A model generated the notes under the pieces. The model made no database searches. It saw only the letters and a list, made by a program, of their open reading frames with translations, and was not told where the DNA came from. A stretch of DNA of 60,280 nucleotides, the filler included, from Jimgerdemannia flammicorona (lineage: Eukaryota), in the NCBI GenBank assembly GCA_003990765.1. It is 3 parts of 3 records of this genome, joined end to end, with 100 filler letters (N's around TTAATTAATTAA, not from the genome) between each part and the next. Parts side by side here need not be neighbours in the genome. Positions count along the whole stretch, not along the records: positions 40,264 to 60,280 come from RBNJ01001779.1; 2 more parts are not named here. One strand, given 5' to 3'. The translations under genes were made by a program, and so were the position numbers. Positions 2,296 to 58,483 of this stretch are shown in pieces. How positions within the stretch are numbered: the stretch's first letter is position 1; each line of letters begins with the position of its first letter.

Positions 2296-2309
2296 TATTC
2301 ATAATTGAT

Positions 2310-3720: not shown

Positions 3721-3819
3721 GGAAATTCATTTCCGATGGTGTAGCTGTGCTTGCTTGTGTTTTCCTCCTTCTTATGCTCGAGTTCAGTGATCTTGGTACT
3801 GGTGAATACTCCTCTTCCT

Positions 3820-4597: not shown

Positions 4598-5041
4598 TCA
4601 GTAGGTGATCTGCATCTTCTGAGCATTGAGATCGATTACTGCCTTGGCTTTGTGAAGCCATTTATTACCGATGAGGATGTCATAGTTGGTGGCATTGGTT
4701 ACAATTATATCTACTGGGATTGTTGCTCCTCCAATCTTGATGGAAACATCTCTGATCTTTCCCAGAGATGTGGCTCTTATACCATCAGCTGTGACAAACA
4801 CCAGCTTAGTTGCTTCTTCCACATTCCAACCTAGGCAGTCTGCTGCCTTCTTGCTGAGGAGACATCCTCCTGCTCCCATATCAATGATGGCTTCAAAGAT
4901 TCTATCTTTAATTTGGCATGTTGCATAAGCAGAGGTTTTGCAATTATCCTCACTTTCTTCTTCTGAGTCCTCTTGAACATTATTGGCCTCAGTTATCTTC
5001 CATCCTTGTTCCTTAGTTGTTTCGGCAAGTCCAAACCTCAT
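4598..5041 (-). pseudogene. Retropepsin aspartic protease of element A
   Basis: AIIDMGAGGCLL (DTG>DMG via ACG>ATG) and YDILIGNKWL motifs. Confidence 0.9.
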
Positions 5042-14381: not shown

Positions 14382-14930
14382 ATGACTCAGAGAATTGACC
14401 AGTGTCTCCAGACCCTTATTCTCAGTTCTTTCTAAGTCCTACTTATTTCTCTGCCTCAGTTCTATCTACTTGAAGAAACTCTAATATAATTAATCTAAAA
14501 ATACCAAGAAAATCTTACTATTGTCCAGAGGCTGTTATAGATCTACTATCTATAGCTCTTCTACAATATTAGACAATTATTACAAAAGTAACTATATCTA
14601 AAGAGAACAGCTAGTATAACTCTCCAAGAAGTCTGAACTACAAAAAGGCTCTATACTTTATATAGATGAAATTTAGAAGTTCTGTCATAAGTCTATTTCT
14701 ACCTAACTGATATCTATCAGATAAATAAGATAATCTTCTAGAATACTTTCCAATAAGTAGATATCCTATTCTCTGAAGAACAGAAAGAAAACCCAGAACT
14801 AGAATGGAGTGATCCAGATTCAAAAGAAGATAATGATACCAGTATAGATATAAAAGATACTTATAAATATTAGAATAATAACTAAAGAACAGTCTAAGGA
14901 TAGACTATCTTTTAGGAGGAGCTGATGTGA
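14382..14930 (+). pseudogene. Accessory ORF3 of element B
   Basis: ATG at 14382 overlaps the IN end and one frame runs to the LTR: LFYNI(R/G)QLL...TTKRLYTLYR, similar to ORF3 of A. Confidence 0.7.
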
Positions 14931-18924: not shown

Positions 18925-20034
18925 GTATAAGCTCCTTTCTCTGCTACCTCACCGGTCACAAGGTTTGGTAGATGACCTTCCAAGTCCCCTTTCCCCTAAT
19001 ATTACCCCCTCTACCTCAGGTTGGTTTGCTGTGTCTGTAGGGGCATGGTGGGAGGAGGGCAATGGTGATGAGTTGCCCCTTTATCAGTGTCGGATCAGTG
19101 CTTCCTCCACTTTTTCACGGATTCTGGTACCTTCAGCTGCATCTGGGGTGTACCCGTTTTGGTGCAGCACCTTCTTCCTTTTGCCATCGCCAACAAGGAG
19201 TTGTCTCAGTGTGTCTTGGGCTACATAGAGAGTTGGCTGACCTTGGACATCAAGTGCTCAGTGTAGGTTACCTGCAGGTCCTCAGTGTCTGTGGTGGGGC
19301 CCTCTGGCTTTGGCGAGCTTCCCGGCAAGCACGGTTCTGGCATCGGTGACTGCTTTTCAGGTGTTGTCGGGATGGGAGGGGAGATGGCCATCACAGATAG
19401 GTGGAAGGGCGATTACGGTGAACCAGTAGGGTGCCAGGCTGGGGGCGGTCATTGGGGCTGGGGCAGGTGCTGCTTCAGTGGGGCCTTTTGATTGGTACGG
19501 CATGGTTAGGTGGTAGGTGTCACTATCGGCTTCTTTTGGCAGTCAGTGGGGTTGGGCCCCAGTCGTCAGGGGGGGTCAGGAGGCCTGAGGCTACCCATTT
19601 CAGGCATCTTGGCTGCACTCAACTAGAACCAGGAGCTGACACGGCAACATGATCGAGGCCCGCAGGCTTGAGTAGTGAGATATTGGGGGTTTCCTCCTGC
19701 CTCACGTATAAGTCCTTTACTCACCTCAACTGGGAGAACCAGGCCCTACTCACCGTGTTGTACTTTGATGAGGGTTTTTTATTTGCCTGTCATTCTCTTT
19801 GGGGTAGCAGGGGCTATTCTATTCGGCTCGGGCATGGCCTTATATATACGTTGGGTTCTCAGGCATGCGCTTTTGGTCATTGGCATATGGTTGGATTTCC
19901 CCTAGTGGTAGGGAGAGCATGGTGTGCAGAATGAGGTGCGGGCTTATCAGCCCTGCTGCGCCTGGCATGGTCAAGCTGCTGGACAATAGCTAGCCTAGGT
20001 TAATGGGGGGGCAGTGCTTGGTGGGTGGTGGGGG
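18925..20034 (+). mobile_element. Copy 1 (cut by contig end) of a 1.19-kb non-autonomous poly(A) retroposon
   Basis: Colinear with 49074-50190 and starts at the same 5' point. Confidence 0.85.
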
Positions 20035-20134: not shown

Positions 20135-20416
20135 ACGAAGTCGCGCTGAAACCAGGAATGGTGTATTTTTTTTTTTTTTTTGTTGTTTTAAATTTTGTAA
20201 TAATCGAAATAAATGCATATTGTGGTGGATGTGTGTTGTAATGCGAAAATCAAAAACGATTGGTCTTGAATTGCTGATCCTGAACCGGAATACCTTAATA
20301 AATTGTTCAAGGAGGTGGATAAGATAGAGGACCCAACCCTGAGAAGATGTTCATCTGAGTTATGCTCGGAACGTCGCATGTATTGGCATGCACAATAATA
20401 ATATGCAACTCCAGGA

Positions 20417-20616
20417 ATGAAGATGTTCAAGAAGGCGACTGAGGCAAACGCAGCACTACAGAGACACATTCCACCGGAGATTATAGGCACCATACTGCAA
20501 TTTTTGTTACCTAATATCTTACCTAATATCCCTATATTCCCGCTTGACCTCTTCGCCAACGCACTGGTCTGTAAATCCTGGTATCAAGAAGCAGTTACAA
20601 AGCCACCTGTCAAAGA
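20417..20616 (+). CDS. F-box domain-containing exon/ORF
   Basis: IPPEIIGTILQFL...DLFANALVCKSWYQEA matches the F-box consensus; the region retains CpG. Confidence 0.7.
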
Positions 20617-20676
20617 GTATATAGGAGTTATTAACATTGGGTTCGCCTTTTTTTTTTTTTTTTTTTTTTTTTTCAT

Positions 20677-21189
20677 GTGATATATACGATCCATGATCCA
20701 TATGACCCATATGATCATCGTAAAAAGGATGCATACGTCGATCTCAGTGGGCCCCTATTCGAGAACGACACGTTCATCGACACTATCGATGATGTCAATC
20801 ATCGGGATCGAGTCCTCGACCTCCTCAAAGTAGAAGCATTGCAAAGATTTAGGGATAACCTCATCGAAACAGCGCTCGCAAGCGTAGCCTATACCCTCGA
20901 AGACTTCTACAACGCCATCCAAGGGCGTTACATGTATTGGTGCTCCGGCACCTCTAACCGCCCCGAAGTGCTGCTTGGAGAACGAGCGCAGAGGTCCTAT
21001 CTGGCCCATTGGCAGAAAATGTCCATCCAATTCGAACGAGGCAATACCGACCTCCGAGGGTCATTGCCACCAACAGCTAGCCAGCAAATTGGCCTCGAGG
21101 GACTCCGTACTGAATACCCAGACTTAAACCGTGAACAACGAGAATTTGCCCGAAGGCGCTTTGCCCCCAACCGACCCCCGAGCCTTTAG
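20677..21189 (+). CDS. Hypothetical protein/exon, possibly spliced to the upstream F-box exon
   Basis: 170-codon CpG-rich open frame after a poly(T) tract; no recognisable family. Confidence 0.5.
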   Translation: MIYTIHDPYDPYDHRKKDAYVDLSGPLFENDTFIDTIDDVNHRDRVLDLLKVEALQRFRDNLIETALASVAYTLEDFYNAIQGRYMYWCSGTSNRPEVLLGERAQRSYLAHWQKMSIQFERGNTDLRGSLPPTASQQIGLEGLRTEYPDLNREQREFARRRFAPNRPPSL

Positions 21190-21475
21190 CTGACCGACTC
21201 CAGAGCCTCTGCTAGAAGCAAAAGTAGAAGTGAAATAGTATGGAGTCTGGTGTCTCAATATGAACGACGAACAACTAGAAGCAGCCTGAAGGCCCTTCAC
21301 CCCTAACCGACCGCCGAGCATGAACGCTAAAGGGCTTTTATTGAATGATCGCAATTTTGACACATTAACTCGGGAAAAAAATAAAACGGTTTTCATCATT
21401 GTTGTCTGCAATGTTTACTTATAAAGTAAAAGTCCAACATAAGATGGTTTATTGATGGGTGACTCCGAGGGGTCT

Positions 21476-21960
21476 TCAACTATCACGTATCCAGCAATCT
21501 TTATACAGGGAAAGACATTTATCATGCATAATCTTCACCACCTGTTCATTGCTCTGCAAATGCAGTGGAAGTTCAATCTCTTTAAGGGTTTCCCACCTAG
21601 TTATGACATTTACTATAAATAATAGTGATATTAGCAGACAATTTCTGAAGAAAACCTTTAGGAGATTCAAACAAATTTGTTGACAATCTATATTATTGAT
21701 TAACTCTGTAATGTTGTATCTGCTGAAATATACAAACTCTAGCAATGATAGCTTCACAATTTCCTCTAGTACCTTGTCATCAACAATTTTAATATTGTAT
21801 AAGATAATGGTTTTAAGATTTAGACACTCCAAAATGATCACATCTATTGAACAAACAATTGATCTTGGTAAAGGTAGAAAACATTTTGGAAAAAGTGGTG
21901 CCAGGTGTCACCTAAAGGACAAAATTCATAAGTTGGGCCATATTCTTTATTATCTTACCT
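21476..21960 (-). pseudogene. LRR (RNI-like, F-box/LRR-type) gene fragment
   Basis: Repeated CPNL/CLNLKTIILY/CLNLLKVFFRNC/LKEIEL motifs; CpG-depleted with stops. Confidence 0.6.
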
Positions 21961-32330: not shown

Positions 32331-32699
32331 TCAGAGCACTAGGTAGAAGTAAGGATGGACCTGGATATTGACAACTCAATTCCTCCTTACTAGCTAAGAA
32401 GAATTTATAGGATACTTGGGTAGGGGATATTGGGTTGAAGATTATTTTTTAAAACTATAAGAGGCTCCTAATAGGGGTCTATTAAATGAGATTTAAGAAA
32501 GCTACTAGAGTATATTAGAGAGAAATAGGTGAGTTTGCTGAAAAGAAGCAGCAGAGGAGGATGAGGTGGGCCTCTGATAGGTTGGTCCAGTTGTAGATAG
32601 AATGAGCTGATCTGTTGAACCAGGGAATAGTGGATAATTTTTTTTTTTTTTTTATAGTCTCTTGGACTGCCCTTTATTACCAAAGTCTATAATGTATAC

Positions 32700-35600
32700 A
32701 ATACAATGCCACCCCTGTCCTCAACCAACACCCCGAGGGCCCAAACCCTCCCTCTCAACCTCCCCCTGCCCGAGCACCACCCAATTACCTACCACCCGAA
32801 CCCTCCCACCACTCTTCTGGGCAATACTCTGCACCAGACCCCTGCGGTACCCCCCACCCATCCCCTAACCTTGCCACCAACTATTCAAAATATCCAACAT
32901 CAACCATTCCCACCTAGCCATCTTGTCACCAACCCCCACCCAGCGCCCTTCCTTGAATACATAAACCCAGTACCCTGCCAGTCCAACCTACATAGCCAAA
33001 GCCCAACTAAGGGTCAGCCATTTGTCCCCAACTCCACCTACCATGCACCGGCAGAGCTCTCCTCACCTCCTCTCCTCCTCACCCTCTCTGGCCCCCATTC
33101 CTACCCTGTCTATAATACCCCTCCAAAACTCCCCCAAAACCTCGCATTCACTAAGCCAATGTTCAGGCATTTGTATCACTCCTCCCTCCTGACCAACATT
33201 GAAACAATCCTCGCACTTGAATACCCCACCATCCACCAAGTATCCAGACTGATAGTTCAACATCACATTCTGCCATAGAACCCTCCACTATACCACCCAG
33301 AACTTGGGGGGCAGCCACTGCTGCACCTGTTTGCTCCAAAGCCAGAGTCCATTCCAATTCCACTCCTCCCCAATTCCAACCCTCTGCCAGGCTTCTGGCC
33401 AAAGGTCCCTGCAGATACTCCAGACCCTCGCCAAGCTGAAAGTCCTCCACCAGGACCCCCCCCAAAAGAAGCCTGTCCCACTGCCATATCCACGGTCCCC
33501 AATCCTCCTCGGCTTCATCCCCTCACCACTGAAGTCCAATCTTCTTAGCACCATCCACCACCCCCTACCAAAAGCCCATAAACCGCATCTTCCTGCTCCC
33601 TTCCATGGCCACCATCGCAAGCAGATCTCTGGAGCCACCACATGGGGAGTACCAAACCTCCCACAACCTCTGCATGAGGGGCACCCACTCCCGCCCCCTG
33701 AGCTCGCTTGCCCTTCACAGCCACCAGACTCTCAGACATAGAAGTTGCCTAGTAAAGTCCACTAAGCCCAGCCCACCTCTTTCCAAGTGTAGTGTGAGCA
33801 CCTCCCAACCAACCTGGCTCTGCTGTCCTCCCCAGATCCATGACCTCGCCATCTTCAACAACTCCTTAATCACCCAGGTAGGAAGGTCCAAATGATATCC
33901 AATATACCACAGCTTCGGCATCTAGTATACATTCAACACCATCACTCTTCTGGCAAGGGACATATGCTGGCCTCCCCATCTCAGCAAAACATCACCCCAC
34001 TCCAGAAGTTTATGGTTCCACCATACCCGGGGAAGAAGGGATCCAAACACTGAGAAGTAGATCCCCAAGTAGTGCACTGGTTCACCTGCTAGCACCACCA
34101 TCCCAATAACATTGCCACCAACAATTCCAGCACCCAGCACTAGCATCTCACATTTGTGCCAGTTAAGTTTAGCACCAGAACCCTGCTCATACCATTCCAC
34201 AGTTCTCTGTAGCTTTCCCACATCTCCCAAGGAGCCCAGCCCGACCACCATATCATCAGCAAAGGCCCCCACCTTCCAGTTTACCCCTAAAATGTCCAAG
34301 CCTCCAATCTTATGCCGAATCCTGTCCAATAGCAGCTCCAGGGAGAGAGCATACAATATGGGTGACAATGGGTCCCCTTGTGGCACCCCGCGTCCCAGGG
34401 GAAAGGTTACCCCCCAGTAGTTATTAATGACCAATGCTGCCTGACTGTCCTCTAAGAGGCTGATTAATGCTCTTTGGACCCTTGGCGGGACACTAATCCA
34501 CTTCAGCACTCCTTTCAGCCATAATCTCCACACTCTATCATAAGCCTTCTCCTGGTTCAGAAATACCAATCTGCCATCCACCCCTGTCGCCTGAGCACCT
34601 TCAATCACTCCATGAACCCAGGCTGTCCCATCCCAAATCAACCAACCACCGACAAACCCACATTGCTCCACACCAAGAACCTGCTGGGCGATGCTCTGCA
34701 ACCTCACCACCAAGATTTTTGTCACCAATTTGCGATCCATATCGAGAAGTATAATCGGCCGCTAGTTCTTCCAGTCCTCACACCTTCCCTTGTCCTTAAA
34801 GAGCAAAGAGACCAGTCCTAAGCGCTGTCCCCCAATCCAGGCCCCAGACCGAAGAACTCCATCACACATAGCAGTTATTTCCTCTAGCACCACACCCACC
34901 CCGGCCATCTTCTGCCAAAAATCTCAGGGAAGCCCATCCTCTCCTGGAGCCGTCCCCTTACTCGTTGAGGCCACAATCCTGCAAATCTCCTCACCACTCA
35001 CTGGGTCCCCCAATGCCCCAAGACCCATTGCAGGGTCTGGATACCAATCCCCCAGCTGTCTTTCAATGTTCAGGGCATCCAATCCCCCATCCTCCTCACT
35101 CCAAAGATTCCTCCACTAGGTTCGTAGTAGGTCCAGAATTGCCAGCGTCCCCACCACCAGCTCACCATTCTCATCCAAAACCCCCTCCCACCACTGCCTC
35201 ATACGTCATGCTTGTAACAACCATGACAAGAATCTGGTAGGCCTCTCCCCCTCCTCAAGCCCCTGCCACCACAGGTGAGCCACCATTCCCTGCAACTGCT
35301 CCTCCTCCTCTCTACATAGTACCCCTTTGAGCTTCTCCACCTCCTGCTGTATTCTTACAATACGCCAATCAGTCATGGCCCCCTCCTCCAGCACACCTGC
35401 CCATCTCTCCATAAGTGCTGCTAGACGCCGCGAGGCCCACAGTACCTGCCACCTTCACTGGGCACACTTTCCTTTCCCTGCTTCCCTCCAATACTCCTGA
35501 GCCTTCACCTTCAGCCTTCTCCAGTGGTCCCCAATCTCCAGTCCTTGTTTCTGCCACCTACCTATGTTTCCAACCACCTCTGATTCCCATCTCTCCCACA

Positions 35601-36374
35601 ACACCTTATCCTCTAACAGGGAAGAATTCAGTCACCAATGTCCAGGCCCATCCTCATTTCCCCCAAACCTCCCCCCTCCTAGCAGCCCCCAGTGATCAGA
35701 CCATGGGCACCATATGACCTCCAGCGCTGCCCAGACATCTGTCCCCCAACACTCTGCCATTAGAACCCAGTCAATCCTAGAGCCCAGTCCTGCCACCCAG
35801 TGGGTGTACACCTGCCGATCAGCCCAAAAATGTCTTCCTGAGTCCACTAGAGAACACACCCTCTCCATCTCCAACCAGTCACCCAACCCACCACTTTCAC
35901 TCCACATGCCTCTTCCACCATCAGTTCTGTCCAACTCCTTATCCTGTACCATGTTGAAGTCACCCCCCATACAGTCTAACCCAACTTCTCTCAGCACACC
36001 AGCCTCCTTCAATCCGTGGATCCACTCCACCCTCTCTCCCCTCTCTCAGCTGGGCAGTAACAGGACCCGACTGTCAGTGGGTCCCATCCAGGCCTCCTCC
36101 ACACTCCCCACACCACCCGAGACCCCCAATGTCCAATGTTCCCAATGTCCCCCATCCCTTTCTGAATGAGAATATACACTTTTCCCCTCCAAACTGCTAT
36201 ACCCCCCCATTCCTTAGTCCAATCCTATAAGTCTACATCTGCCTCATAACGAATATCCTACAGTAAGAAGAGGTCCGCATCCAGTCCCTTAAGTCAACCA
36301 AAAATATACTTCCTCCTAGCCGACCCCCGTAGCCCATTAATGTTCAATGAGAAAATCCTAGTTGTACTGTTCAT
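32700..36374 (-). pseudogene. LINE ORF2 (APE endonuclease, RT, C-terminal CCHC)
   Basis: FSLNINGL, GGDFN, SRID, SDH; QEKAYDRV, GVPQGDPLSP, FADD; ERGGLGL; KCEDC...EHWLSEC. Confidence 0.93.
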
Positions 36375-36405
36375 ATTGAAGAAAAGTTGCAATAGAGAAC
36401 CCAAT

Positions 36406-38148
36406 CTATAATTCCATGCTCATCCCATCTCCAGCCAGATCCAAGCGCCACTTAGCTTCCACTTCCCCCTTGGCATTATCCTGAGCATCCAGTGCTCCCA
36501 AGATTTCCTGACATTCCACTCTGTCCACTTCCTCTATATTAGCCCTGTAGTCCAAGCAGACAGCGCGCCACTTCTCCAGTCCCTTCCTTGAATTCCACAA
36601 AAAATATGCTCTGTCACTTGTGATCCTCCTAAGTTCCTCCTCCCTCTGATCATCAATCTGATACTCAACCAACTCCAGGAGGACCGCTAGGATCTCATTC
36701 CTCATCTTCCTCAGCACCTCCTCCCCCTGTAGGATCTCCTCCCAATGCTTCTCCTCCAATATCCTGAAGTCCTCACCCCCTAGCTCTTCAGCTGCCACCC
36801 CTTCCAAGGTCTTCCACATCCACTTCTCCTCATCCACTGCCTTCACCGCCCCCTGAGCAATTTGTCCTCCATCCACCTCAGTGTCCACCAGTATGCTCCT
36901 TCTCACCGACTTATCCCACTCCTCATCTGGCACATCTATCAGCTCCTCCTCTCCCTCTGCCCCATCTGGAACAATATACTGAGGGTGCACCCCCTTACCC
37001 ATTTCGGCATCCACCTCCAAATAGCCTTCCCTCCTCTCCCCACTGCCAATCTGAACTCCGCCCTAGGCCAACTCTCCCCCTTCAGCCCAGGCGCTCTCCC
37101 GTGATCCTGCAACTCCCTCCCCTGAGCTTCCACCAGCCACACTCTCACCCAACTTCGCCAACAGCTCCTTCTGGATCCTCCTCCCCTGTATCTTTTCCCA
37201 GGCCCCCTTCTCTATCCGGACCCTCTTTCCATCTACCTCCCCAACTACTGTCCTGGCCTCAAACTCCTGCCAGGCCAATTTCCTCCTCGCCACTGCCCCT
37301 TCCAGGTCCTCCAGAGCTTCCAACAGGTCCTCCTCCTCCTCCGGAGTCCCCTTCACCCTGGTGACCTTACACTCCACTGGTCCCCACCTCAGTGCCGCTG
37401 GCCAGTCCCTCGACTTCCCCGTATTCTCCTTCCCAGCCAGCCTCACCCTGACATCAACATTGCCAGTTCTAAGCTCCGTGCCCTCCCAGACCTTGAAACC
37501 AACATCCACAATCTCACCATACTCCTTGACCACCTCTACCACCAACTCTCTGGTCCTTTCCTTAGACACCATCGGGAGGTCCAACACCATCAACTGCACC
37601 ACTCGGGGGTCCCAGTGCATGCACTGGGCCATAGGTACCACAACTCCGCCAACCATCACCCCCTTCTCCATGGCCACCAACAAGGCATCCTCCTCCTCAA
37701 ACCCCACCTCAACCCCTTCCTTCCCCCTCAAGAACTTCACCGAAGCAGCTCCCTTAGCCTCCTATGCCACCAGTCCCAGAATCATCCTCGCCATCACTGC
37801 CAAGCCCCAGAAGTACATTGTGATTATGAATTCCGACCTCGACTTCTTGAGTAATGGGGCCGACACCATGCCTGTCACCCCATCAGCCAGGTCTCCAGGT
37901 CTTGTGCCCCCTCCAAGTCCCAAATTGCCAACTGCTGTCACATCTGGATTTTTTGCCAGATCCCCAGTCACAGCCCCATCAACCATCATATCTCCAGCCC
38001 CTACTCCGGCCCCTTCCCTACCACCAGAAGTACGCTGGGGTACACCTCCCTGACCCCCAGCAGTAGCCATCGATGCCTTTCCCAGATCCAGCCAACCATC
38101 TAGCCCAGAAGCCATCTTCTCCATTCTGACCTTGTCAGCAAAGGTCAA
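36406..38148 (-). pseudogene. LINE ORF1 (RRM-like, acidic coiled-coil C-terminus)
   Basis: ORF pieces 37762-38148, 37063-37740 (VLDLP...YGEIVDV...RTGNVDVRVRL) and 36406-37020. Confidence 0.75.
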
Positions 38149-38419
38149 CCTCTCTCCTCCTCTCTGCCTCAGACCACCCCTCTCTCCACCACCAGGGCCT
38201 CAGCTAGCCATTGAGGCCCCTGGCATCCCCAAACCATCTTCCCTCCTCCCCACCTGCTGCCAGCCAAATGCGCCATCACCCCCCTGGCCAGTATGCTCAC
38301 CAGCTCGATTGTTGCCATCCATGTTGTTAGTTGTCGGACACCAAAAATATTGTAAAAAGTGTTGTCGGAGTCTTGTGTCACCCAAATGTTACTGGTGAAA
38401 GATGTGTTTTTTTCTGCTA

Positions 38420-41514: not shown

Positions 41515-44500
41515 ACAATGGTCAATTTTTAGATTAGTTTCCTTATTAGAATAGTTCTTAGATATAGTAGCAATTTGTATAAAGTAAGTGACAGTAGATA
41601 ATTTTTATATAGTATGATAATCTCCAAGTTAGGTAATTTCTGCATAATGATCTTGTATAGTATAAATAAATTTTTATGCATTTTTTTTATAATAATCTTA
41701 TATAGTATAAATGGATTTCTTATATGATTTCTGTATGAATTCCTTATATGATGATCTTGGCAGTATTCCTTAATAGGTAGTGGGTTGGTAGATAACTCAA
41801 TTTGGTAGACAATTTAATAACTTTGGATAATGCAGATTCTTTCTGAATTAATAGACTTTTTGAATAGTAGTAGATATGAATTCTTGAGCAAAGTTATATT
41901 AGAGACTGACTTTATTTATATAAAGTTATATTAAAAGACTGGCTTTGTAGTAAGATTTCTATGGTGGATTTTTTGGATAAAGTTATATCAAAGATTAGCT
42001 TTATTTATATAAATAAGTTTATTGTAAAGTTGTATTAAATAGACTAGCTTTATGATAAGAGAGACTTCTCAAAAATGGCAACTTTTTCTTAAGCAGTGGG
42101 TTTCTCTTCAAAAGACAGTGAAGTTTTTTTCTCAAACTCAGTGATAAATCTCAAGCTTTATATTGAAAAGTAGACTAGAGTTAAGAAATATGTTTGAATT
42201 TTTAACTGAGGTTTATTTACTCTTATCTTTAGAGTATTTTATATAGTTATAATTGCTATTTAGTTGCTATATAGCTAATTATAATGTAGCTATTTTAGAT
42301 ATAAGTATTTAGATCCTATATAGTATTCAGATTATATAGTATTCAGATTCTATATAGTATTCAGATTATATATAAGATCAATTTCTAATTTGTTAAGTCT
42401 GATTATTTATATAAATTGATATAATAAAGCAGTTCTAGATAACTTAGAATATTTTTGACTACTTTTTATAACTATGACTACCTTGTATACCCACTATAAT
42501 ATCTAGCTAATTTGAATAATATATTTTTTATGACTTATTACAATAGCCTCTACTAAAGAGTAGTCTGTTTCAGACTATTTTTTAGTTATTATTTTAGTAT
42601 CTATAAGTGTCTTTAGCATCAATATCTGTACTATTATCTCTATTGATATCTGAGTTACTCCATTTCTCAGACTCTTCCTCTTCTCTTGAAAATAAAATTT
42701 CAATACTACTAATAAGACTCAGATAGATAGTTATATTTATTATTTATATATTATTTAAGGAGAACTATATCTATAATAATATAATAGTATTTATTTATAG
42801 AATATACAGAGTCTGTCTGCAATAATAATATCTCTTTATAATAAGTCTGTGATATTTCTAATATAGGTCTGCTCTGGTACTAAAAGGTTTTGCAACTATT
42901 CACTAATTACATAGTAAGTCTGCAGTTAGTGAACTTAAAATAAGTATCTGACCAGGAAGAGATTTTCCTGATAGATCTGAATTTACTAGAGAGAGTTTCT
43001 ATAGACTTCTTGAAATTGGGAAAGAGAAACTGATAGGGCTTGAAAGGAGCTAAGAATAAAAGTTTGGAGATACTAGTCAATTTTCTGAGTTATAGTTCTG
43101 AAAAAAAATATATCTTAAACAATTGATATATATTAATATTCTCAGAGTTTATTTATCTATACTTTTTAAATAGATGCTAGTTTTTCTGATATTGTGTACA
43201 ATATTAGATCCTTTCTATTTGGGTTCTAGTTTAGCAATAAAGTTTGTTTTGATTATGTTTTTCCAAACTAGGACTTAATCTCTAATCTTGATCTTCTGAT
43301 CCTTCTATTTCTGGTTATAGTACTTCTTTTGTCTTTTTTGGGCCTTGATTATCTGAGCTCAGGCTTGATTACATAATTATTCTACTTTTCAAGAAGATCT
43401 CTGAGGTTCTTATAATCAGCAGTTTTAGTTTTCTTAGTAAATATTATCTTGAATAACTTTTGTTTAGTAGAGGCCACAGAGATATTTCAAATTTCCCATA
43501 GGATCTCAGATAAGCAGAGATCTCAATTTGTAGGATTGACTCAGGCAAGTTCTTTTTTGATAGTCTGGTTCATTCATTCTATCATATCATTAGTTTGAGA
43601 GTAGTATAATATAGTCTGTTTGAGATAAATCTTATAAATTCAGATATAACTTGTAATTATATTATTGATAGATTCTGTATCTTAGTCAGAAATAAGTTCT
43701 TCTAAGGATCTATATCTGAGTGTGAGTCTATAGAGAAGGCCAATAATAGTCAGAGCATCAGTGATTTCTATTGAGAAAGCCTTGGACTATTTGGTCAGAT
43801 ATTTTATAAATACTAAGATATATTTATTTTTTCTTGGTATTACTAATAGAGATCTAATAATATCTACTCTCTATCTTTAGAAGATATTGTCAGATAGTGT
43901 GATTGATTGTAATAGTACTTGATAGTTCTTCTTTCTTTAGTACTTCTAATAAGTAATATATTTCTTGAGTATATCTCAGATCTATATTCTGAGATTAGAC
44001 CAATATTAGTATATTATTTATAGCTTTTCTTCTATATTTATTTGTCCTTGGTGGGCTTTCTGATATTCTTTTTGAATAATATCTTCTTATACTTTGATAG
44101 TCAGAGGAGCTTTCTTTAGGATGTAGTTTCTTAGTATACTCTTCTTTTAGTTTATTGAAATTGGTAAGAAAGTATATCAACATTATTGTGTGTTTTTTTT
44201 ACTTTATAGATAATGGTGATTTTGTAATCTTAAGGATAAAAATTCAGTAGATGAGAATTTCAGTAGATTTCTTATAATTGAATAGCCATTTGAGAGAGAT
44301 ATAATCAGTTATTAAAGTAAACCTTTTTCTGATAAGATAGTGCTTAAACAGAATAACTGTCTATATCATTACAAGATATTCTAGTTTTATATTATCATAA
44401 TTGACTTACTGCTAGTTGGTAGCTCAACTTGCATAAGCTATCATATAGTACTACTGATTTGGGTCCTCTTGGACTAGAACTACTCTAAGACCATCTTTCA

Positions 44501-45911
44501 AAGTATCTATATATAAGATGAATAACTTCTATAGATTAGATCATATAAGAATTAGTACTATAGTTATATAGTGCTTGCATTTCTTAAAGGCTAGTTCTTA
44601 TAGTTCCTTTAATTTATATAGTACTTCTTTCTTGAAAAGAATTCAAATTAGAGCAGCAATTTGGATGAAGTTTCTAATAAATCTTCTGAAGTAGAATACT
44701 AATATCAAAAATGATAGTATTTTCTTCAGAGTCTTGGGTACTGGCTAGTTATTAATCTTCTTGGTTTTCTTTGAGTCTATATAGATTCCTTCTTTTGAAA
44801 CTATAAATCTGAAGAATTCAAGTTTCTGTTTCCCAAAGTAGTATTTTTTAGTATTGAGTCTTAGGTAATTCTTATAGGTAAGCTTGAAGACTTCTTCTAG
44901 ATAGTATAGGTATTCTTTAAAATTTACTAAATAGATATTGGAATCATCTATATATATAATCAGATAGTAGTAAATTAGTGGACCATAAACTGAGTTTATT
45001 ATTCTTTGAAAGGTAGGGGGTATATTATAAAGTTCAAAGGATATTTAGAGATACTCAAACAGTTTTTCTAGAGTAAGAAAAGCTGTCTTCTGAATATCTT
45101 TAGGATCTATAAGAACTCATAGAATTCTGTAAAAAGATCCATACTATTAAAATATCTAATATCTTGTAACTGATCTAAGAGGTCATTGATTCTGGACAAG
45201 GAATAAGTATCTTTTTTGATGACTGAATTGAGCTTCCTATAGTCTATACAGAGTCTCTATCTTCCTTTCTTTGGTACAATAAGTATAGGGCTGATCCAAG
45301 AACTAGTAGAGGGTTAGATAACTCTATTATTTAAGAGTTCTTGAATGTATTTCTTTTTGAATATTTTTAGATGATGAGATATTCTATAAGACTTTGTCAG
45401 ATAGATATTGCATTTCTTATATTTATATTATAATGATATAATGGGTTATATGGCAGATTACTATAATCAGTAGTGAAGATATTTTAATATTTGTGGAGAA
45501 GTTCTACTAGTTGCTACCATTATTGAAGTATCAATTATTCCTAATATTAATGAAAGACTTTGCTTTCTTCTGGATTGCAGAGGGGTCTTTTCTTTCTTCT
45601 GGGACCTTTTTCCATTTCTTGATAGATATATCTTATAAATTTCTCTATAAGTTCAGTTAAGATAGAGTACTAGATATCCTATAATAGTTTCTTTTAGCAA
45701 GATGATGCTTTTTTAGCTCTAGTTGATTGCTCAAGAGTGTACAGAGTTCATCTTGTCAGAGAATATATATTCTTCAATGTCTAGATTCTTGATATCTTTA
45801 TTAAGTTCAAAGAAAAGATTTCTTAGATCAGATAGTATAAAGATTTCAAAAACAGTTTACTCTTCTAGTTCTAGAATGAGATTTTTGTAGAGTTTGATTA
45901 GTTGGCAGTAC
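41515..45911 (-). mobile_element. Gypsy element D (B family): post-dUTPase domain, RT, RH, IN, ORF3, 3' LTR
   Basis: Reverse complement is colinear with 11560-15845. LTR 41515-42542 starts TGTAATAAGTC after the PPT; ORF3 at ~42545-43093. Confidence 0.88.
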
Positions 45912-48760: not shown

Positions 48761-49073
48761 AATAATGATAGGTACAGGTGGTTTTGTGGTTTAGTTCAGA
48801 AATAGCTTGTCATCATTTTTATTGTATTGCTTGAGACATTGGATATTGAAGACTAGATGAATCTTAATAGTATCTAGTAGTACCAATTTGTAGGAGATTG
48901 GAGAGACTTGTGTGATAACTTCAAATGATCTAATAAATTTGCTGTTCAGCTTTATAGATGGTCTGTGCTTGAGATTATCAACTCAGTATCCTTGGATGTC
49001 CAGTAAAACTTTTTCTCTAATATTGAAAGTTTCTTCTTAGCAGTATTAATTAATATACTGTAACTGTTGTTCT

Positions 49074-50263
49074 GTAGTGCCTCTTTCTCCACTATCTTAC
49101 TGGTCACAATAGTTTGGTAGGCAATCTTCCAAGTCCACTTTCCATAATTATTACCCTCTTTACCTCAAGTTAGTTTATTGTACCTATTGCAGGACAGTGG
49201 GAAAGAGGCAATAGTAATGAGTTGTCCCTTTATCAGTGTCAGATTGGTGTCTTCTCTACTTTTTTACAGTTTCTGGTGCCTTTGGCTGTATCTAGAGTAC
49301 ATCTGTTTTGGTATAGCATCTTCTTCCTTTTGCTATTGCCAACAAGATATTGTCTTGGTGTATCTCAGGCTATATAGGAAGTCAGCTGACCTTGGACATT
49401 AAGTGCTCAGTATAGATTACCTGCAGGTTCTTGATACCTGTAGTGGGGCCCTCTGGCTTTGGTGAGCTTCCTAGTGAGCATGGTTCTGGCATAGGTGACT
49501 GCTTTTTGAGTATTGTCAGGATGGGAGGGGAGATGGCCATTACAGATAGGAGGAAGGGCGATAATAGTGAACCAGTAGAGTACCAGGCTGGGGGCAGTCA
49601 TTGGGGCTGGGGTAGGTGCTGCTTTGGTAGGGCCTTTTGATTGGTGCGGTACAGTTAGGTAGTAGGTATCACTCTTAGCTTCTTTTGGCAAGTTGGCAGG
49701 TTGGGCCCCGGTCATCAGTGGGAGTCAGAGGACCCAAGGCTACCCATTTCAGGCATCTTGGCTGTACTCAACTAGAACTGGGAGCTGATATAGCAATATG
49801 ATTGAGGCCTACAGGCTTGAGTAGTGGGGTATTGGGGGTCTTCTCCTATCTTATATATGTATAAGTTCTTTACTCACTTTGACTGAGAGAACCAGGTCCT
49901 ACCCACTGTGTTGTGCTTTGATGAGAGTTTTTCTTTGCCTGTCATTCTCTTTGGGATGGTAGGGGCTATTCTATTTGGTTCAGGTATGGCTTTATATATA
50001 TATTGGGTTCTTGGGCATATACTTTTGGTCATTAGCATATGGTTGGGTTTCTCCTGGTAGTAGAGAGAGTATGGTGCACAGAATAAGGTATGGACTGCCA
50101 TAGGCCCTGCTGCATCTGATATGGTTGAGCTGCTAGACAATAGCTAGTCTAGGTTAATGGGGGGACAGTGCTTGATGGGTGGTGAGAGAGAGTTTTGGCC
50201 TATATAGTCTAGATTCTCTTCTAATAAAAATCTATGGGACATTGAGTCTGTTAAAAAAAAAAA
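49074..50263 (+). mobile_element. Complete 1.19-kb non-autonomous poly(A) retroposon (copy 2)
   Basis: AATAAA at 50223-50228 and A11 at 50253-50263. 14-bp TSD GTRACTGTTGTTCT at 49060-49073 / 50264-50277. The integrase frame of E rejoins when it is removed. Confidence 0.9.
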
Positions 50264-53200
50264 GTGACTGTTGTTCTTAGGCTTGTGATAAGTTCTCAAT
50301 TGTAATCTGGCTTAAGTTACATATTCAGAGTAGGAATTCTTTAATGACTTTAATTGTAGAGGATTCATCAGTAGTTTGGATAAGTATCAGGGAGGTATTT
50401 GGGTTTTGTCCTATATTAGTAAAGAATGGGGTCATTCTAAGAGAGGTTTGCTTGCTATTGTTATAGGCAAACTCCACTGCAGTGAGATGTTTATGCCAAT
50501 TATCTTATTTATAGGAAATATAGTTCCTTAGCATTTATTCTAGAGTTTGGTTCATTCTTTCAGTTTGGCCATTAGTTTTGAAGTAAAAGACTATGGATAG
50601 TATAAGTTTCATTTCAAGGTATATATGAAGGGCTTTCTAAAAATAGCTGGTAAATTTCAGGTCTCAATTACTAATAATGATCTTAAGAAGATCATAATAG
50701 TGGAAGATATTGTCAAACAAGAGTGTGGCTATGTCTGGTGCTGTTGTAGTAGTAGTAGTTGATACAAAGTGGGCTTATTTGCTGAGATAGTTTATAAAGA
50801 CAATAATTGCATCTTTCTTATTCTTGGTTCAGGGTAGTTGTATAATAAAGTCTATAGCAATTAGTAGATAGTACTGAGATAGGGTGGAGTAGGTCAGGTT
50901 TTGCTAGTATTGAGAACTTGTTATATTGGTAGATATCACAGAAAGTAATATAAGTCTTTAGCTGATCTGCTATATAGGGCCAATAGAAGTTTCAGGAAAT
51001 AACTTCATAATATTTGTCAAATCCTAAATGTCTGACTATAGGAGTATCATGACATTTGAATAGGATAGTCCTTTGGAAGTCTCAGTTGTTTGGAATATAC
51101 AATCTGTCCTTATAGTAGATAGCATTGTCCTTTAGTTGGTATTGATGGTACTGAGTGTATTTGTCAGTATTGTCACTATTCAGGATTTCTCAGAGTGCTT
51201 GAGCTTTCTTATCATCAGCATATGCTATGATAATTTATTCTATAATAGAGTTTATAACCAAGGTGAGGGTTTGGATAACTTCTTTAATTAGTGATCTGAA
51301 GATTGCATCAGCAATAATATTTTCCTTGTCATTATAATACTGGATTTTATAGTTAAAGTTGGTGAGAACTTTTATCCATCTGACTTGCTTTCAGAAAAGA
51401 GTAGCCTGGGTCTTGATATTGACTAATGACTTGTGGTCAGTCAATATAGTGAAGTGTGCTCTTTCTAAGTATGGTTGCTATTTGATCAGAGTATCTATAA
51501 TGGCTAACATTTCCTTCTCATGAGTTATATAGTTGATTTTAGTATCATTGAACTTGCAAGAGTGTTAGGCCACAGGATGTTCTTCTTGCATAAGTACTGC
51601 TCCAAGAGCTAAGTCAGAGACATTAGTAGTAACTTTATATAATAGGGTAGAATTTGCTGCTTGAAGCACTGAAGTGGTTATCAAGATATCTTTCAGTACT
51701 TAAAAGACTGTATCTTGTTCAGGTCTTCAATTTACAAGATTGTTGAAGTCTTTCTCTTGTTTTATGGTCCAGGGTTGTTGTTCTTTCTTATTGTACTTAG
51801 TCATTTAAGTAAGAGCAGTAGCAATTTTAACAAAGTTGGCAACAAATCACCTGTAATAGTTTTCTAATCCTAGGAATGACTAGAGGTCTTTCAGCTTCTT
51901 GGGTCTAGGCCAATCCTTGATTGTGGAGATTTTGCTGGGGTCTACTTTGATTCTATTTAGCATGACAATGTATTCAAGGAATTGAATTTCTTTCAGGAGA
52001 AATTTGTATTTGCTAAGTTTTGCAAAGAGTCAGTTTTCTCAGAGTTTTAGTAGTACTAGTTCAAGGTGTTCAAGATGTTCCTCCAGGGTTTTGCTGAAGA
52101 CTAGAATGGCATCAATGTTGATAATAACAAATTTATCTAAATATAGATATAGGATAGTGTTCATTAGTATCTGGAAGGTTGCAGGAGTATTAGTTAAGCT
52201 AAAAGGTATAACCAGGAACTCGAAGTGTCTATAGTAAGTTCAGAAGGCTGTCTTATTGATGTCTTCTTCTTTTATGGCAATTTGCTAGTAGCTATTTCAC
52301 AGGTTAAAAGAGCTCATAAATTGTAAGTTGGTAAGCCTATCAAATATTTTATTAATTCTGAGTAGTAGGTAACAGTTCTTAATGATCTGTTTGTTAAGAT
52401 TATAGTAATCTATACATATTCTTAGGTCTTCTCCTTTCTTGACAACAAAGAGGACTAGTGCACTATAGGGTGATACACTGGGTCTAATAAATCCTTATTC
52501 TAGGAGTTTGTTAATTTCTTTCTTGAGTACATCGATTTCTCTCAGAGATATGTAGTAGATTGACTTGAAGGCTGGCTTAGCATCTGAAATAGTCTTGATG
52601 GTATAATCTACTGCTCATTTAGGTGGTAGGCCTTTCAGGAGTTTCTTTGGGAATATGTCTTAGAATTTCTAGAGTAGGGGTCTAATATGGCTATCAACTT
52701 TGGAAAAGTCTTCTTCAGAGTTCTCAGGTTCTTCTTTGGATAGATAGATGGGGATGGCAAAGAGAGGGCATTTCTTGGGCCAATTTCTTAAGTTGTAGCT
52801 TATTGATATAGGTGATCTTTGGTCCAGGATCACTGGAACTGAGTGGGTCCCTTTTGCCTTATAGTTTGAAGTTGTGGTATCCTTTCTTGATAGTTAGGAA
52901 ATAGTTTATCCAATCAATTATAGGGTTCTCTTGTTTCAATTATGAGGTCTCAAGGATAATTTCATTATCAAAAAGTGTTATAATCTAGAGATTAATATGT
53001 ACTTGATAGTTATTAATTCAGAAGGGTAGATTGTAGACTTTCTTGTTAATGATATGTGAGGTTTCATCAGTTATAGTAACTACTTGAGTCTATTATACTG
53101 GAGAGATGAAGACCTTGAGTCTGTTGGCTGTTTCTTTATTGATGAAGTTGCCTGAGACACTACTATCTATCATAATCTTGACAGGTGCTCAGTTGACAAA

Positions 53201-53786
53201 AGCTTGAAGTATAAGCAGTTTATCTGATCCAATAGTGGTAATTTTGGTTATAAGAGCCTTCTTTCTATTAGTTCTTCTTTGAGCTAGTTCATTGATACAA
53301 GAGAAGCAATCATTGATCATTTGGAAAGAGTATATTCTAATACCATAGAGATATCAGCCACTGGGTATATATCTGTTGTGAAATACTTGGAATGGAGGGA
53401 GCAAAAACAAACTGTTTATTGCTAATTCTTATGTGCTTTTACGCATAGCAATTAGTGATGTTTACATGATGACATAGTCAAGGAAGGCTGTGCCACTATA
53501 TATTGAGTTGTAACCTACATATTTCAATACTCTCACTCAATGAGATATGCAAATTCCCAAACTGCAATACTAAGCTATAACTACTGCAAATCTCGCTGCA
53601 ATGTTCAGACCACTATCTAGAAACCAAAAAACACCTGAATTATCTGCTTAAAGCTCGAAAAATAGGTTGAAAAGTAGAAATGTGAATATTCGTAGATAAG
53701 CAATGTTGGTAGAAATCACCAATATAGGAATCAATGTTAAAGAAGCTTGCTGTCGCTCTATTATCCTATCTCATCCCGAATTGTCC

Positions 53787-56700
53787 TTAATTACCAGCAT
53801 AGAGTCCTGTAATACCCATTCCTTGCACGCATAAGTTAAACTTTGCCTTTGGAAGGGCTTTAGTCAATGAATCTACCATCATATATTCTGTTGGGGTATA
53901 TTCAAGGTGTATAGTGCCGTTTTCCATGCATTCATGTATGAAATGATGCTGTATGTCAATGTGTTTCGTTCTGGTGTGATGTATAGGGTTCTTCGCCAAA
54001 GCAATCGTTGATTGGTTATCTTGCTGGAGTAGCATAGAGTGCCGTTGCTTGAATCCTAGCTCCTTTAACAGTTCTCGAAGCCAGATAGCCTCCTTTGTTA
54101 CCATTGACAATGCTTGATATTCCACTTGTGTAGAGGATATTGCCACTAAAGGTTGCTTATACATTTGCTATGAAATGGCTCCATTGTTTACTTTAAAGAT
54201 GTATCCAGTCATAGACCTTCTGTCATCTAAGTCACTGGCCCAATCGGCATCATAAGAACTAAGTAGGCATATAGTACTCCTGCTTTGCCTATTATCACCA
54301 CCCAAACTGAGCATATAGTCTACAGTTCCTTTGATGTACCTGAAAATTCGCTTGATTGCCATCCAATGTGAATTATTGTAGCATGACAAGTATTGCGCCA
54401 CTTTGTTGACTGCAAATGATATGTCAGGTCTCATTCTGAGCATAAGATATATGAGGGATCCTACAGCTTGTCGATAGGGGATGTTGTTATTTTCGAGTGT
54501 AGTTCTAGACTTCTTTAACCTCACAGATGTCTCTATCAGTGTTCCGACTGGCTTGTACTTGCTCATGCCAAATTGCTCGAGTATTGTCTAAATGTAGACT
54601 TCTTGGCTTAGGTGTATAGTATGTGTGCTCCTATCATGTACGATGGATATCCCCAAAAGGAAAGATGCATCACCCATATCTGTCATCTTGAACTTCTTGC
54701 GTAATACCATCTTTACTTCATTGATCTCACTTGTCATCCTGACCAGAATGATATTGTCAACCCAAATTTCCAGGTATACTGTTCCTGAGGATGTATGATG
54801 AGTATATATACATAGGTCTGCTTCACATCATTTGAACCCATTCTCTTCTATGAGATAATCATTGATCTTTCAATTCCACAGTCTCGCCACCTGTTTTATG
54901 CCATAGAGGCCTTTGCGTAATCTGCATACTAACTTCTTCTCATTGTCATAGAGTTCATATCCTTGTGGTTGAAGAATGTATAGTTCGGTATCCATGTCTC
55001 CATTTAGGAAGGCTATCTTAATGTCCATTTGATGTATCTCATAGTCATACTTGGCTCCAATTGTAAGAAGTATTCTAAGCGAAGTAAGCTTAAATACCAG
55101 GGAAAATATTTCATCGTAGTCAACTCCAAAGTCTTGTAAATACCCCTTTGCCACAAATCGGGCCTTGTATCATTCTATGCTGCCATTGCTATCATGTTTA
55201 ATTTTATACACCCATCAGGATCCTATGGCTTGTTGATTTGCTGGAAGAGGGACCAAGTCTCATGTGTCATTCTCGATGAGTGAGTTATACTCCTCATCCA
55301 TAGCCTTTTTCCACTCCTTTTTATCATTCGAATGAATGGCTTCATCATAGTGTGCTGGCTCATCAGTCATTGCTATGTAAGCACATTCACAGGCATAGTT
55401 CACATGATATTGTTTGCGACGAGATGACTTGGGTGGGTTCCAGTAATTTCCCAGATCCGCTTGGACTTCATTTTCCATCCCAGATTTGTACTTCTTCTTA
55501 TCCTTTGGAAAGGTATCCTCTTCGTCATCCTTGTCCATAATTTCTGTTATCCTTGGTTCTTGCAACTTCATTTCCATTTGAATGGGTTGTATTTTCACTA
55601 GCATAGGTCTCAAGGATGTCTTTGGCATAGTCTTCGATGTCATTCTAGGTGTAGATGTTGTTCTGCTAGCCTTTGCAGTTGGCGTAGATGTCGCTGGCTG
55701 TACCATCGAATTCACCATCAGATTTGAGATAGAAATTTCCATGTAAATTTCCTGCTTAGTCTCCTTGAACTGTACGTCACATGAAATGATCATACGTTGT
55801 TTCTGCGGGTTCCAAAGTTTGTATCCCGCTCTATCATATCCAAGGAATATATGCTTATCTGCCTTAGGTTCAAACTTGCCTCAGTTGCCACCTTTGTCCA
55901 GAATGTATGCCTCACTTCCAAATATGTGTAAGTGTGAAATGTCAGACTTGGATCCATTCCATAATTTCTCAGGGGTAAGATTGCTATTGTTCCTGGATTG
56001 CTTACCGGGATCCTTGCTTAGAGCTCGAGAGAAATAATGATTTCGAATATATGCTGCCATATTCACTGCTTCCGCCCAAAAGGACTTCGGTAAGCTGGCT
56101 GTATTTATCATCATTCTAGCCATTTCCACTACCATTCAATTGAATCATTCTACCATGCTGTTTTGCTGAGGTGTATAAGGGGCTGTCATAGAGTGCTGTA
56201 TACCATTCTTCTTCAAGAAGTGTCTGAAACCTTTGTTGATGTATTCTTTGCCATTATCTGAGTGTAGGGTTTGTATTCTATGTCTCATCTCATTCTCCAT
56301 AGCTGCCTTGAATTCCCAGAATTTGTCGAATGCCTTGTTTTTCCCTGCAATGAAATATATGTGGACTTTGCATGTATAATCATCAATGAATGTAATAAAA
56401 TACTTCTTCCCAGAGTGTGATGTCATTCGCATGGGGCCACAAATATCCGTATGAATCAAATCGAGAATGCTGGCTGCTCGCTTCATTCGTTCCTGAAAAG
56501 GTTGCCGGGAAGCCTTGTTTGCCATATATCCATCGCAAAAGAAATCCGGTGGCGTATAGTCTAGTAAACCATACATGGACTTACTCCTTATCATCCATTC
56601 CAGGCTTGTCTTGCCGAATGTCCTAAGTGTTCATGCCATATATGCCAGAGATCCTCTCCAGTCATAGTTGCAGAATATGCGAATGATGCGCCACTTGGCA

Positions 56701-58210
56701 TGCCATTGATTGTATATAGATTCCCCTTTTTTGATACATACATTAACTCCTTATTGTTCTTCAGATTGATTACCATTACACCATTTGGGCATATATTTAC
56801 TCCTCTGTCCCTGCGAGCCATCATCCGGCCTATTGAGAAGAGGTTCTTACCTATATCTGGAGTGTATAGTACATCCACAAAGGTGCCTGAAGGTTCATCA
56901 ACATTTCCATATAGATGTATACCTACGTTGCCTTTCCCTTGAGTGTAAATGATGTTATTGTCACCTAGCTTGATAGGTATGAGATGCTCGAACTTCTCAT
57001 ACATAGAGAACTACTCCCGGTGAGCCATCACATACTGTGTTGCACCCGAATCCATGAGCCAGACCTCTTCGCTGCATGCATAAGTACTGTTCAGCATATA
57101 GCTTACATTTGCGCTGGCACCGACATTGATGTCACCATTTTTCGCTGTCTGAAAAGTGTTTTGTTGACCAGGATTTGTAGATGTCGAACTGGTGGAATTG
57201 CATCTGCAACTGGTGGTTGGTTCCGAATTTCCTCCTATTTCAATGGTTTCTGCATATGGATAGGTCACCGCTTCTGTAAAGAATAGACCTCCGCCACTGC
57301 TGTTTTCATTATTGGTGTCCACCACATTTGCCTGCCATTGTCCTTGCTGTTGGCCACCCTTTTCCTTCTTCTTGTGGTTGCAGTCCTGCTCACGATGTCC
57401 ACACTTATTACAGTAAAAGTATTTACCATCGAATTTCTCACATTGCTGGCCTCGACCTTTGTTTGACTTGCCTTTGCCTTGTCCACATGCTCTGCTATAG
57501 AATGCTTTCTCATCATATTCCTCATTGGTGTTGTTGCTGCCTAGCCTTGTTTCCTCATTTAAAAGGCTTGTGACGACGTGCTTATAATCTGATAATCTGC
57601 CAGATTCCCTCATAGCAGTGACAACCATGTTGTATGCTTTGGGAAGGCCTCGTATAAGAGCCAGGACTTTATCTTCATCCTTGATGGTGTCCGCCAGCAT
57701 AGATATAAGGGAATTCACTTGATTCGCTAGCTTGTCGACTTGATTGACATAGTCCCAGATGCTCTCCTTGGACTTAATTCAAAGATTGAATAGTTGCACC
57801 TTTAAGTGGAATCTGTTTGATGTAGATGCCTATTGATGGTGATTGCATAAAATCTCCCAGACTTCATTCGCCATCATAGCGTTGATTATCAGCTTCATTT
57901 GCATGTTCGAAAAGGTGAACGTAATCTCCCTTAGTGCTTTGCAATCTTTTGCGACGTCATATGTCATTACTTGCACCTGTGGCTTCCAGTAGTCCTCCAA
58001 ACCACATTCTTCTAGGAGATTTTTCATATGGTATGCCCATATGGCATAGTCCTTACCATCAAAGACAGGAATTGTCCTCTTTACCATTGACGTTGGCACC
58101 ACTGCTAGAATGTTCGTCATCATGGAAGCGAAACCCATTCCAGCTGTGTTTGTGTTTGTATTACCAGAACTTGGTGGTGCACTGCTAGCACTGCTTGGAC
58201 TAGTAGCCAT
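53787..58210 (-). pseudogene. Copia gag-pol polyprotein
   Basis: FDGKDYAIW; CNKCGHREQDC; WLMDSGAT; LIHTDICGP; HQMDIKIAFLNG; GLYGIKQ; DADWASD; DNQSTI...RTKHIDI. Confidence 0.95.
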
Positions 58211-58260
58211 TGTATAGCATAGTGTAGCATATGTATAAGAGGGGTGTATAGCCGCTAAGC

Positions 58261-58273
58261 AGGGCTTATAACC
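58261..58273 (-). promoter_or_regulatory. Copia PBS of the half-tRNA-iMet type
   Basis: GGTTATAAGCCCT just inside the 5' LTR is one G>A away from GGTTATGAGCCC, the anticodon-arm PBS of Ty5/copia. Confidence 0.8.
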
Positions 58274-58483
58274 TTTTGTTATAGAATACTTGGAATAGAG
58301 GAAGCAAAAACAAACTGTTTATTGCTAATTCTTATACACTTTTATGTATCACAATTAGTGACATTTACATGATGACATAGTCAAGGAAGGCTGCACCACC
58401 ATATATTGAGTTGTAACCTACATATTTCAATAATATCTATCTTCAATTTTCTTATAGAATTGTTCTTCTTTGTTTATAATAGA

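Follow-up and report, generated by a model that had tools for sequence, protein, structure and literature searches.

At positions 49079–50263 (+) of the window, by which is meant the whole 60,280-nt stretch of Jimgerdemannia flammicorona DNA that was analysed, lies a full-length retroposon copy of the subfamily designated A. The copy is heavily deaminated and stands at 84% to the inferred state of its subfamily. It is bounded by a 14-bp target site duplication (TSD; 49060–49073 and 50264–50277, both +), reported in the earlier note without mention that its two arms differ by one transition (A/G). Five extra letters, apparently untemplated, separate the left TSD from the element (49074–49078, +); a few such letters are present at the 5′ ends of other copies too and differ from copy to copy, and the family thus begins at 49079, not at 49074 as first proposed. 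The plus-strand AATAAA polyadenylation signal (50223–50228) and the poly(A) tail (11 A's, 50253–50263) were correctly recognised at the outset. A nearly invariant TATATA(G), not assigned to a strand, occupies 50201–50207 within an invariant block before AATAAA and, from its sequence, may be either a sense-strand 3′-processing element or an antisense TATA box. At the other end, a pyrimidine-rich head (49079–49118, +) is like the opening ∼38 nt of the L1-like LINEs resident in this genome and opens a 5′ module (49079–49650, +) common to both deep lineages of the family, between which 12 of 576 columns differ.

A second plus-strand copy, of subfamily B, spans 18931–20034, carries an antisense intron at 19724–19636 and is cut by an assembly gap from 20035, before its tail and TSD. 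This copy exists as claimed and is 81% identical to the first, but its first family base is 18931 rather than 18925. C-to-T or G-to-A changes make up 145 of the 206 substitutions between the two copies, and the window as a whole is strongly CpG-depleted.

Copy number, subfamilies and decay of the family

The abundance of the family was determined in the 231-Mb host assembly (35,354 contigs). Exact deamination-tolerant matches numbered 3,124 for a 35-nt head pattern and 3,503 for a 35-nt tail pattern, both lower bounds, with controls giving 0 in each case. The element is real and is present in at least 3,500 copies, an estimated share of roughly 1.5% of the genome (∼3,500 copies of ∼1 kb in 231 Mb); pieces of the family are also contained in sequencing runs X1, X3 and X7. 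The 60 best-scoring copies have one common start, the same tail and different TSDs. Since score-ranked samples favour full-length copies, the truncation rate was taken from tail-picked samples only. The main one comprised 90 of the first 100 listed places (four at contig starts and the last six were left out), of which 58 extend to the fixed start (with an insertion in one), 28 are 5′-truncated at staggered points and four are cut by contig or stretch ends. The fixed 5′ end proposed in the earlier note therefore holds for about two thirds of the copies (58 of 86 informative), the other 28 being staggered truncations. An earlier tail-picked set gave 12 full starts and three truncations among 15 informative loci, with five more cut by contig ends. 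TSDs were found in 49 of the 90 loci and, as anticipated, differ between copies; they are 9–26 nt as called, mostly 13–17 nt, begin with A in 35 of 49 and are preceded by T in 26 of 49. Contig ends and decay account in part for the 41 loci where no TSD was found. Most copies have a long genomic poly(A), and the upstream flanks of full-length copies have no common continuation. Poly(A), variable TSDs, a fixed 5′ end and thousands of copies bear out the initial description of a defined, probably LINE-dependent unit inserted by target-primed reverse transcription.

Two further observations were made on these samples. Some 5′ truncations cluster at a CACGTG palindrome beside the island that holds the intron donor described below, at element positions ∼763–780 (window-equivalent ∼49845–49860); four of the 28 truncations in the main tail-picked sample and two of the three in the earlier one fall there (L082, L095, L224, L229, L259 and L286), and the palindrome may mark a reverse transcriptase (RT) pause site or an internal start. 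Several copies are inserted inside other copies of the family (L067, L068, L073 and L090), often in opposite orientation, an arrangement expected to form inverted repeats locally.

Three young subfamilies (A, B and C) were distinguished, together with older haplotypes. Subfamily C agrees with the others over its first 570 and last 120 nt but is diverged in the middle. Old and young 5′ haplotypes are each present in both lineages, which indicates that 5′ modules have been exchanged between them. Inserted copies decay by C-to-T and G-to-A change, most strongly at CpG, the rates for subfamilies A/B being 0.52/0.23 at CpG, 0.20/0.05 at CpA and 0.11/0.02 at CpC. A search of PMC12543289 gave no passage on deamination in this group.

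A dependent element and its probable LINE partner

The element has no enzyme of its own and no tRNA-type promoter, as had been noted from the sequence. Neither an RT nor any other Pfam domain was identified in the six frames of the second, subfamily B copy (0 families), no strict A box lies in the element, and 0 tRNA genes were predicted in five loci. Rfam gave no match at gathering score in that copy or in three loci, only sub-threshold chance ones. Loose A-box-like and B-box-like matches are present, but not in the arrangement of a tRNA promoter, and the sense strand holds 7–8 internal runs of at least four T's (8 in subfamilies A and B). The 5′ end, inspected for ribozyme motifs, had no Rfam match, left its first 11 nt unpaired when folded and scored a z of about −1; no 120-nt window of the plus strand of B or C, or of the minus strand of B, fell below a z of −1.5. 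A small hairpin precedes AATAAA in both 3′ folds (z of +0.5 and −1.9), in a block whose invariance leaves covariation uncountable.

A decayed full-length L1-like LINE, with head, ORF1, endonuclease, RT and poly(A), occupies 32650–38403 (−) of the window, and sequence evidence makes a LINE of this kind the most likely agent to mobilise the element in trans. Among solved structures, human LINE-1 ORF2p was the best match to its RT (E 1e-18, other RTs reaching 8e-10 or weaker), and a homologue at 36% identity bears endonuclease, RT and zf-RVT. A 14-nt LINE-head pattern gave 2,096 matches in the genome as against 16 for a control, and 27 of 30 sampled matches then lead into an ORF1 relative. With at least 2,096 LINE heads fitting one 14-nt pattern, full-start L1-like copies must be common and several diverged LINE families must have one head. 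A decayed LINE-type head motif at window position 23030 (+) suggests that one further old LINE starts there.

When the first 45 nt of the element were compared with 30 LINE heads, the score was reached by 0 of 500 shuffles, in a test that is partly circular, the LINE heads having been collected with a pattern chosen after the likeness was noticed. Beyond the search pattern, plain deamination-blind scoring was not significant (43–87 of 500 shuffles), while anchored deamination-aware scoring was equalled by 14 of 1,000 shuffles and by 3 of 1,095 other 23-mers of the element. The element head thus resembles the heads of the L1-like LINEs of this genome over a short and partial stretch of ∼38 nt, and is likely to act as an internal Pol II core promoter. 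The 3′ tail, through which a partner LINE had been expected to be recognised, is not shared: the 75-nt tail did no better than shuffles against seven LINE tails from one LINE group, although a GAGTCC motif after AATAAA is alike in element and LINE tails (2–34 of 500 shuffles). The lack of a common tail agrees with the account that L1 recognises poly(A) in a relaxed manner (PMC3747384). A rarer LINE partner with a common tail may exist, given that one LINE group was sampled. Searches for partner LINEs with PF14529 found no other LINE kinds; PF13966 gave no match, nor did its control, and PF00078 gave only 483-nt RT matches, read as Gypsy from their length alone.

Between AATAAA and poly(A), LINE tails hold a short inverted repeat, AGTCC...GGACT (window 32655–32700 (−), L125, L135 and L216); the words AGTCC and GGACT are found in the element tail too, in swapped order. 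Directly after the LINE tail in L125 (positions 1100–1735) stands an array of ∼9-nt repeats, followed by unique sequence, AATAAA and poly(A).

Element and LINE were also found joined. In L070 the 5′ 539 nt of the element run into a LINE 3′ region, and in L232 and L272 LINE 3′ sequence is joined directly to truncated element tails, both parts having the same orientation at all three junctions. These junctions look like template switches, of the kind that gives U6-L1 chimeras; being single cases in which contigs end or the partner arm is missing, they could also be nested insertions. Considered together, the fixed 5′ end, the truncations, the differing TSDs, the LINE-like head, the lack of a common tail and the LINE-element junctions point to a Pol II-type, non-autonomous retroposon like Eg-R1, Sadhu or NARTc.

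We are confident, short of certainty, that the family is best explained as a high-copy, non-coding, non-autonomous, LINE-dependent retroposon with a LINE-like promoter head. Pol II would start at the fixed pyrimidine-rich site, set by an internal promoter within the LINE-related head, and the resulting 1.17-kb RNA would be cleaved and polyadenylated after TATATA/AATAAA, signals that are present and whose use is presumed. The ORF2 protein of a LINE, the enzyme presumed from the products seen, would then bind the poly(A), nick a T/A-rich site and reverse-transcribe the RNA, leaving TSDs mostly of 13–17 bp, a few extra 5′ letters and a 5′ truncation in one third of the copies. Template switches during this process would account for the LINE-element junctions and for the mosaic subfamilies.

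The systems closest to this retroposon come from fungi, plants and trypanosomes. Eg-R1 and related non-LTR elements of Blumeria graminis and hordei are non-autonomous fungal elements with thousands of copies and a conserved 5′ region that are taken to be transcribed by Pol II (10.1101/242271; PMC10648671). The present element is like that group in its copy number, its lack of A and B boxes, its internal T runs, AATAAA and TSDs. However, Eg-R1 is ∼670 bp long, encodes the ROPIP1 peptide and has genomic copies without a poly(A) tract, whereas the element studied here is 1.17 kb long, lacks a coding signal and has a long genomic poly(A); in a comparison made by description only, the Eg-R1 genome lists Tad1 LINEs and the LINEs here are L1-like. 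Sadhu of Arabidopsis is a low-copy, non-coding family of ∼900 bp with poly(A), no identified driver, TSDs of 7–16 bp and both sense and antisense expression (PMC2848041). Non-coding character, poly(A), a T before an A-rich TSD start, the lack of Pol III boxes and a polypyrimidine patch are features of both. The 5′ CAATCGTTSC motif of Sadhu is absent here, the head opening directly with its pyrimidine run, and the low copy number of that plant family contrasts with the thousands of copies and the head like that of resident LINEs in the present one. In trypanosomes, the non-autonomous NARTc and RIME have the 5′ head of their LINEs, L1Tc and ingi (PMC1874656; PMC3383444), and this head is an internal Pol II promoter (PMC1874656). 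The pairing with a LINE, apparently by way of the 5′ head and not of the 3′ tail, recalls NARTc, yet the likeness here is partial (∼38 nt) and is not to the Pr77 sequence, a 77-nt segment that folds as an HDV-like ribozyme; the present head matches no Rfam ribozyme. No publication on this family was found, Repbase and most subscription papers being outside the scope of the search, and the family is apparently an undescribed one within the Pol II-type non-autonomous retroposons, a known class that has received little study. The copy census, the likeness of the head to LINE heads and the antisense intron are the new findings.

An antisense intron and its conserved islands

On the minus strand, a GT-AG intron (49785–49877, −; 93 nt here and 89 nt in subfamily B) has its ends in conserved islands. 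The acceptor block differs at one of 55 columns and the donor block (GTGAGT) at none of 20 between C-type (n = 19) and AB-type (n = 51) copies, whereas the neighbouring blocks differ at 47 of 128, 39 of 60 and 93 of 266 columns (35–65%). The subfamily B copy has two GTGAGT sites of the donor-like kind pointed out earlier; at window-equivalent 49877 GTGAGT is the state of the family, and at the other site 53 of 60 copies read GTGGGT. One contig of run X6 lacks an 89-nt segment with GT..AG ends that extends exactly from this donor to this acceptor; it has a depth of 2.8 and 88 letters on its shorter side, the reads having been placed at 80% likeness. Nine skip joints were found in four runs, the X6 contig being the only one with GT..AG ends and the other three runs lacking it. 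The RNA nature of run X6 is a guess, its organism is only a relative, and its contigs give neither start, strand nor level.

A spliced antisense RNA without coding function may be made from the minus strand. A selected antisense promoter near the 3′ end together with the intron, yielding a spliced RNA that affects the silencing or expression of the element itself, is a possibility that we regard as tentative; it adds to the LINE-dependent retroposon explanation and does not replace it. The islands and the X6 contig argue for it, as does the nearly invariant TATATAG at the 3′ end, which faces the antisense direction. On the other side, X6 also has an unspliced contig across the 89-nt intron, and the same junction would arise if a host transcript ran on into a copy. 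The 55-nt island exceeds what a splice signal needs and is tandemly duplicated in subfamily C, fitting instead a factor-binding site, and with sequence being exchanged between lineages the islands could stem from conversion. Of the 49 AB-type copies that have the donor site, 16 no longer carry its G (about the 90th percentile of CpC decay), with losses scattered over young and old copies. Moreover, TATATA is palindromic and lies where, by a yeast motif, we presume a 3′-processing element to be. The narrower proposal that a gene-less retroposon, made up of a LINE-type promoter head and a tail of its own, kept an antisense promoter and a functional intron across two old, otherwise diverged lineages and thousands of insertions, their spliced RNA tuning or evading host silencing, appears somewhat doubtful. 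An antisense intron would in any case persist, not being removed from the sense RNA that gets copied. Were the proposal true, an antisense intron would be under selection in an element that is non-autonomous and purely parasitic.

Parallels exist among other retroelements. HeT-A and TART produce spliced antisense non-coding RNAs, HeT-A from a promoter near its 3′ end (PMC2615633), and antisense, non-coding, intron-containing transcripts are described for transposable elements of Blumeria hordei (PMC10648671). The evidence there consists of RACE or long reads, as against one contig and conservation here; splicing in HeT-A was suggested to use cryptic sites, whereas the ends of one intron are conserved across lineages here. 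The reason why retroelements keep spliced antisense RNAs has been called elusive (PMC2615633), and the present family, if its antisense intron is functional, would offer a natural system for that question.

Alternative origins and other features of the window

If the copies were instead processed retrocopies, derived from a single host non-coding gene or a few of them, with promoters outside the copied sequence and no self-propagation, they would also end in AATAAA and poly(A), and the 5′-TOP-like pyrimidine start after a frequent extra G fits an mRNA retrocopy. Nevertheless, a family of thousands, divided into three or more subfamilies besides older haplotypes, with mosaic 5′ modules and the LINE-like head, indicates successive self-propagating masters, and the upstream flanks lack the common continuation noted above. 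This origin is considered improbable.

The central proposal of the earlier note, a captured minus-strand protein gene whose own TATA and introns are kept through retrotransposition, was less probable still, and the minus strand encodes no maintained protein. The frame in question (49230–49740, −; 169 codons) has no start codon and one fixed stop, a TGA at 49407–49409 (−) that was passed over by an ellipsis when the frame was described as common to both copies; it was judged non-coding. All 31 copies compared have the TGA, which is fixed in subfamilies A and B, older copies having a 1-nt deletion here, and further fixed stops stand at 49740 and 49749, just upstream of the frame. A single stop in 169 codons might seem to speak for a gene; yet 8–13 fixed stops occur in each of the six frames, and stretches so long are expected at 60% GC, since same-composition single-base shuffles gave a 110-codon open frame in 471 of 500 cases and, in 409 of 500, a frame of 169 codons with a single stop. 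Differences between A and B, at eight synonymous to nine non-synonymous, are the most synonymous of the six frames and so favour the gene; a plus frame has seven synonymous and nine non-synonymous. Transversions common to at least three of 203 copies or pieces were synonymous in five of 21, against a neutral expectation of 0.23. This agrees with neutral substitution in the frame.

The fixed stop and one common 1-nt indel fall inside a possible 51-nt GT-AG intron (49370–49420, −), whose removal would take out the fixed stop. This candidate was not supported: no spliced contig was seen, and X6 contigs cross it unspliced. In addition, a 1-nt deletion combined with a 1-nt insertion throws the frame into a stop in nine of 62 copies, each of them old and both lineages being represented, and the insertion lies outside any intron. 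The longest ATG-started minus ORF varies from 49 codons in B (spliced or not) to 104 in A and 103 in C, the last two arising under different splice forms. A protein search with the frame returned one match of 651 candidates and two matches among 1.84 billion representatives; both protein matches are hypothetical proteins and singletons, which depart from the frame and resemble decayed family copies. In the protein alignment the row for L077, read in the wrong frame, was left out of use. No Pfam family and no Atlas match was found for the frame, and in JGI metagenomes 0 of 254 pattern matches were confirmed, a 28-nt pattern giving 0 matches.

The regulatory signals assigned to this gene fared similarly. 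The TATA motif TATATATAA (49992–50000, −) is present in both window copies but in only six of 60 copies overall; within the motif most copies have a G (44 of 60) and a C (45 of 60) instead. Both window copies thus reached it through deamination, and it is a decay product rather than the family state. TGA/CAA pairs do occupy the two codons named as traces of ancestral CGA; however, TGA/CAA/CGA columns occur in all six frames, because any CpG site gives them. As to the introns, an antisense GT-AG intron does survive in copies, but with no protein gene around it. For genome reading in general this is a caution, as a lost gene can be simulated by the TATA-like motifs and the CGA/TGA/CAA patterns that deamination makes.

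A plus-strand ATG-started ORF of 95 codons, present in all three young subfamilies, was also considered. It was set aside because, as we read the alignment, old copies acquire a stop in it through their 1-nt deletion and because no plus frame exceeded seven of 21 synonymous common transversions.

A classical Pol III SINE with an origin in tRNA, 5S or 7SL RNA could have the fixed 5′ end, poly(A), TSDs and high copy number, but is scarcely credible with no tRNA, no Rfam match at gathering score, no strict A box, a length of 1.17 kb and 7–8 internal T runs that would end Pol III transcription.

Other repeats are present in the window. A Gypsy-like element with gag, protease, RT and integrase pieces (1500–5800, −) and a Copia-like element (53700–58400, −), names that we take from ORF motifs, are both broken by stops. 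An AT-rich 2.9-kb repeat occurs twice in opposite orientation (11558–14452 and 43023–45910) at 79% identity. The only stretch with near-normal CpG content, 20135–21900, contains ORFs at 20635–21189 (+, no Pfam family) and 21476–21907 (−) and is probably a host gene island.
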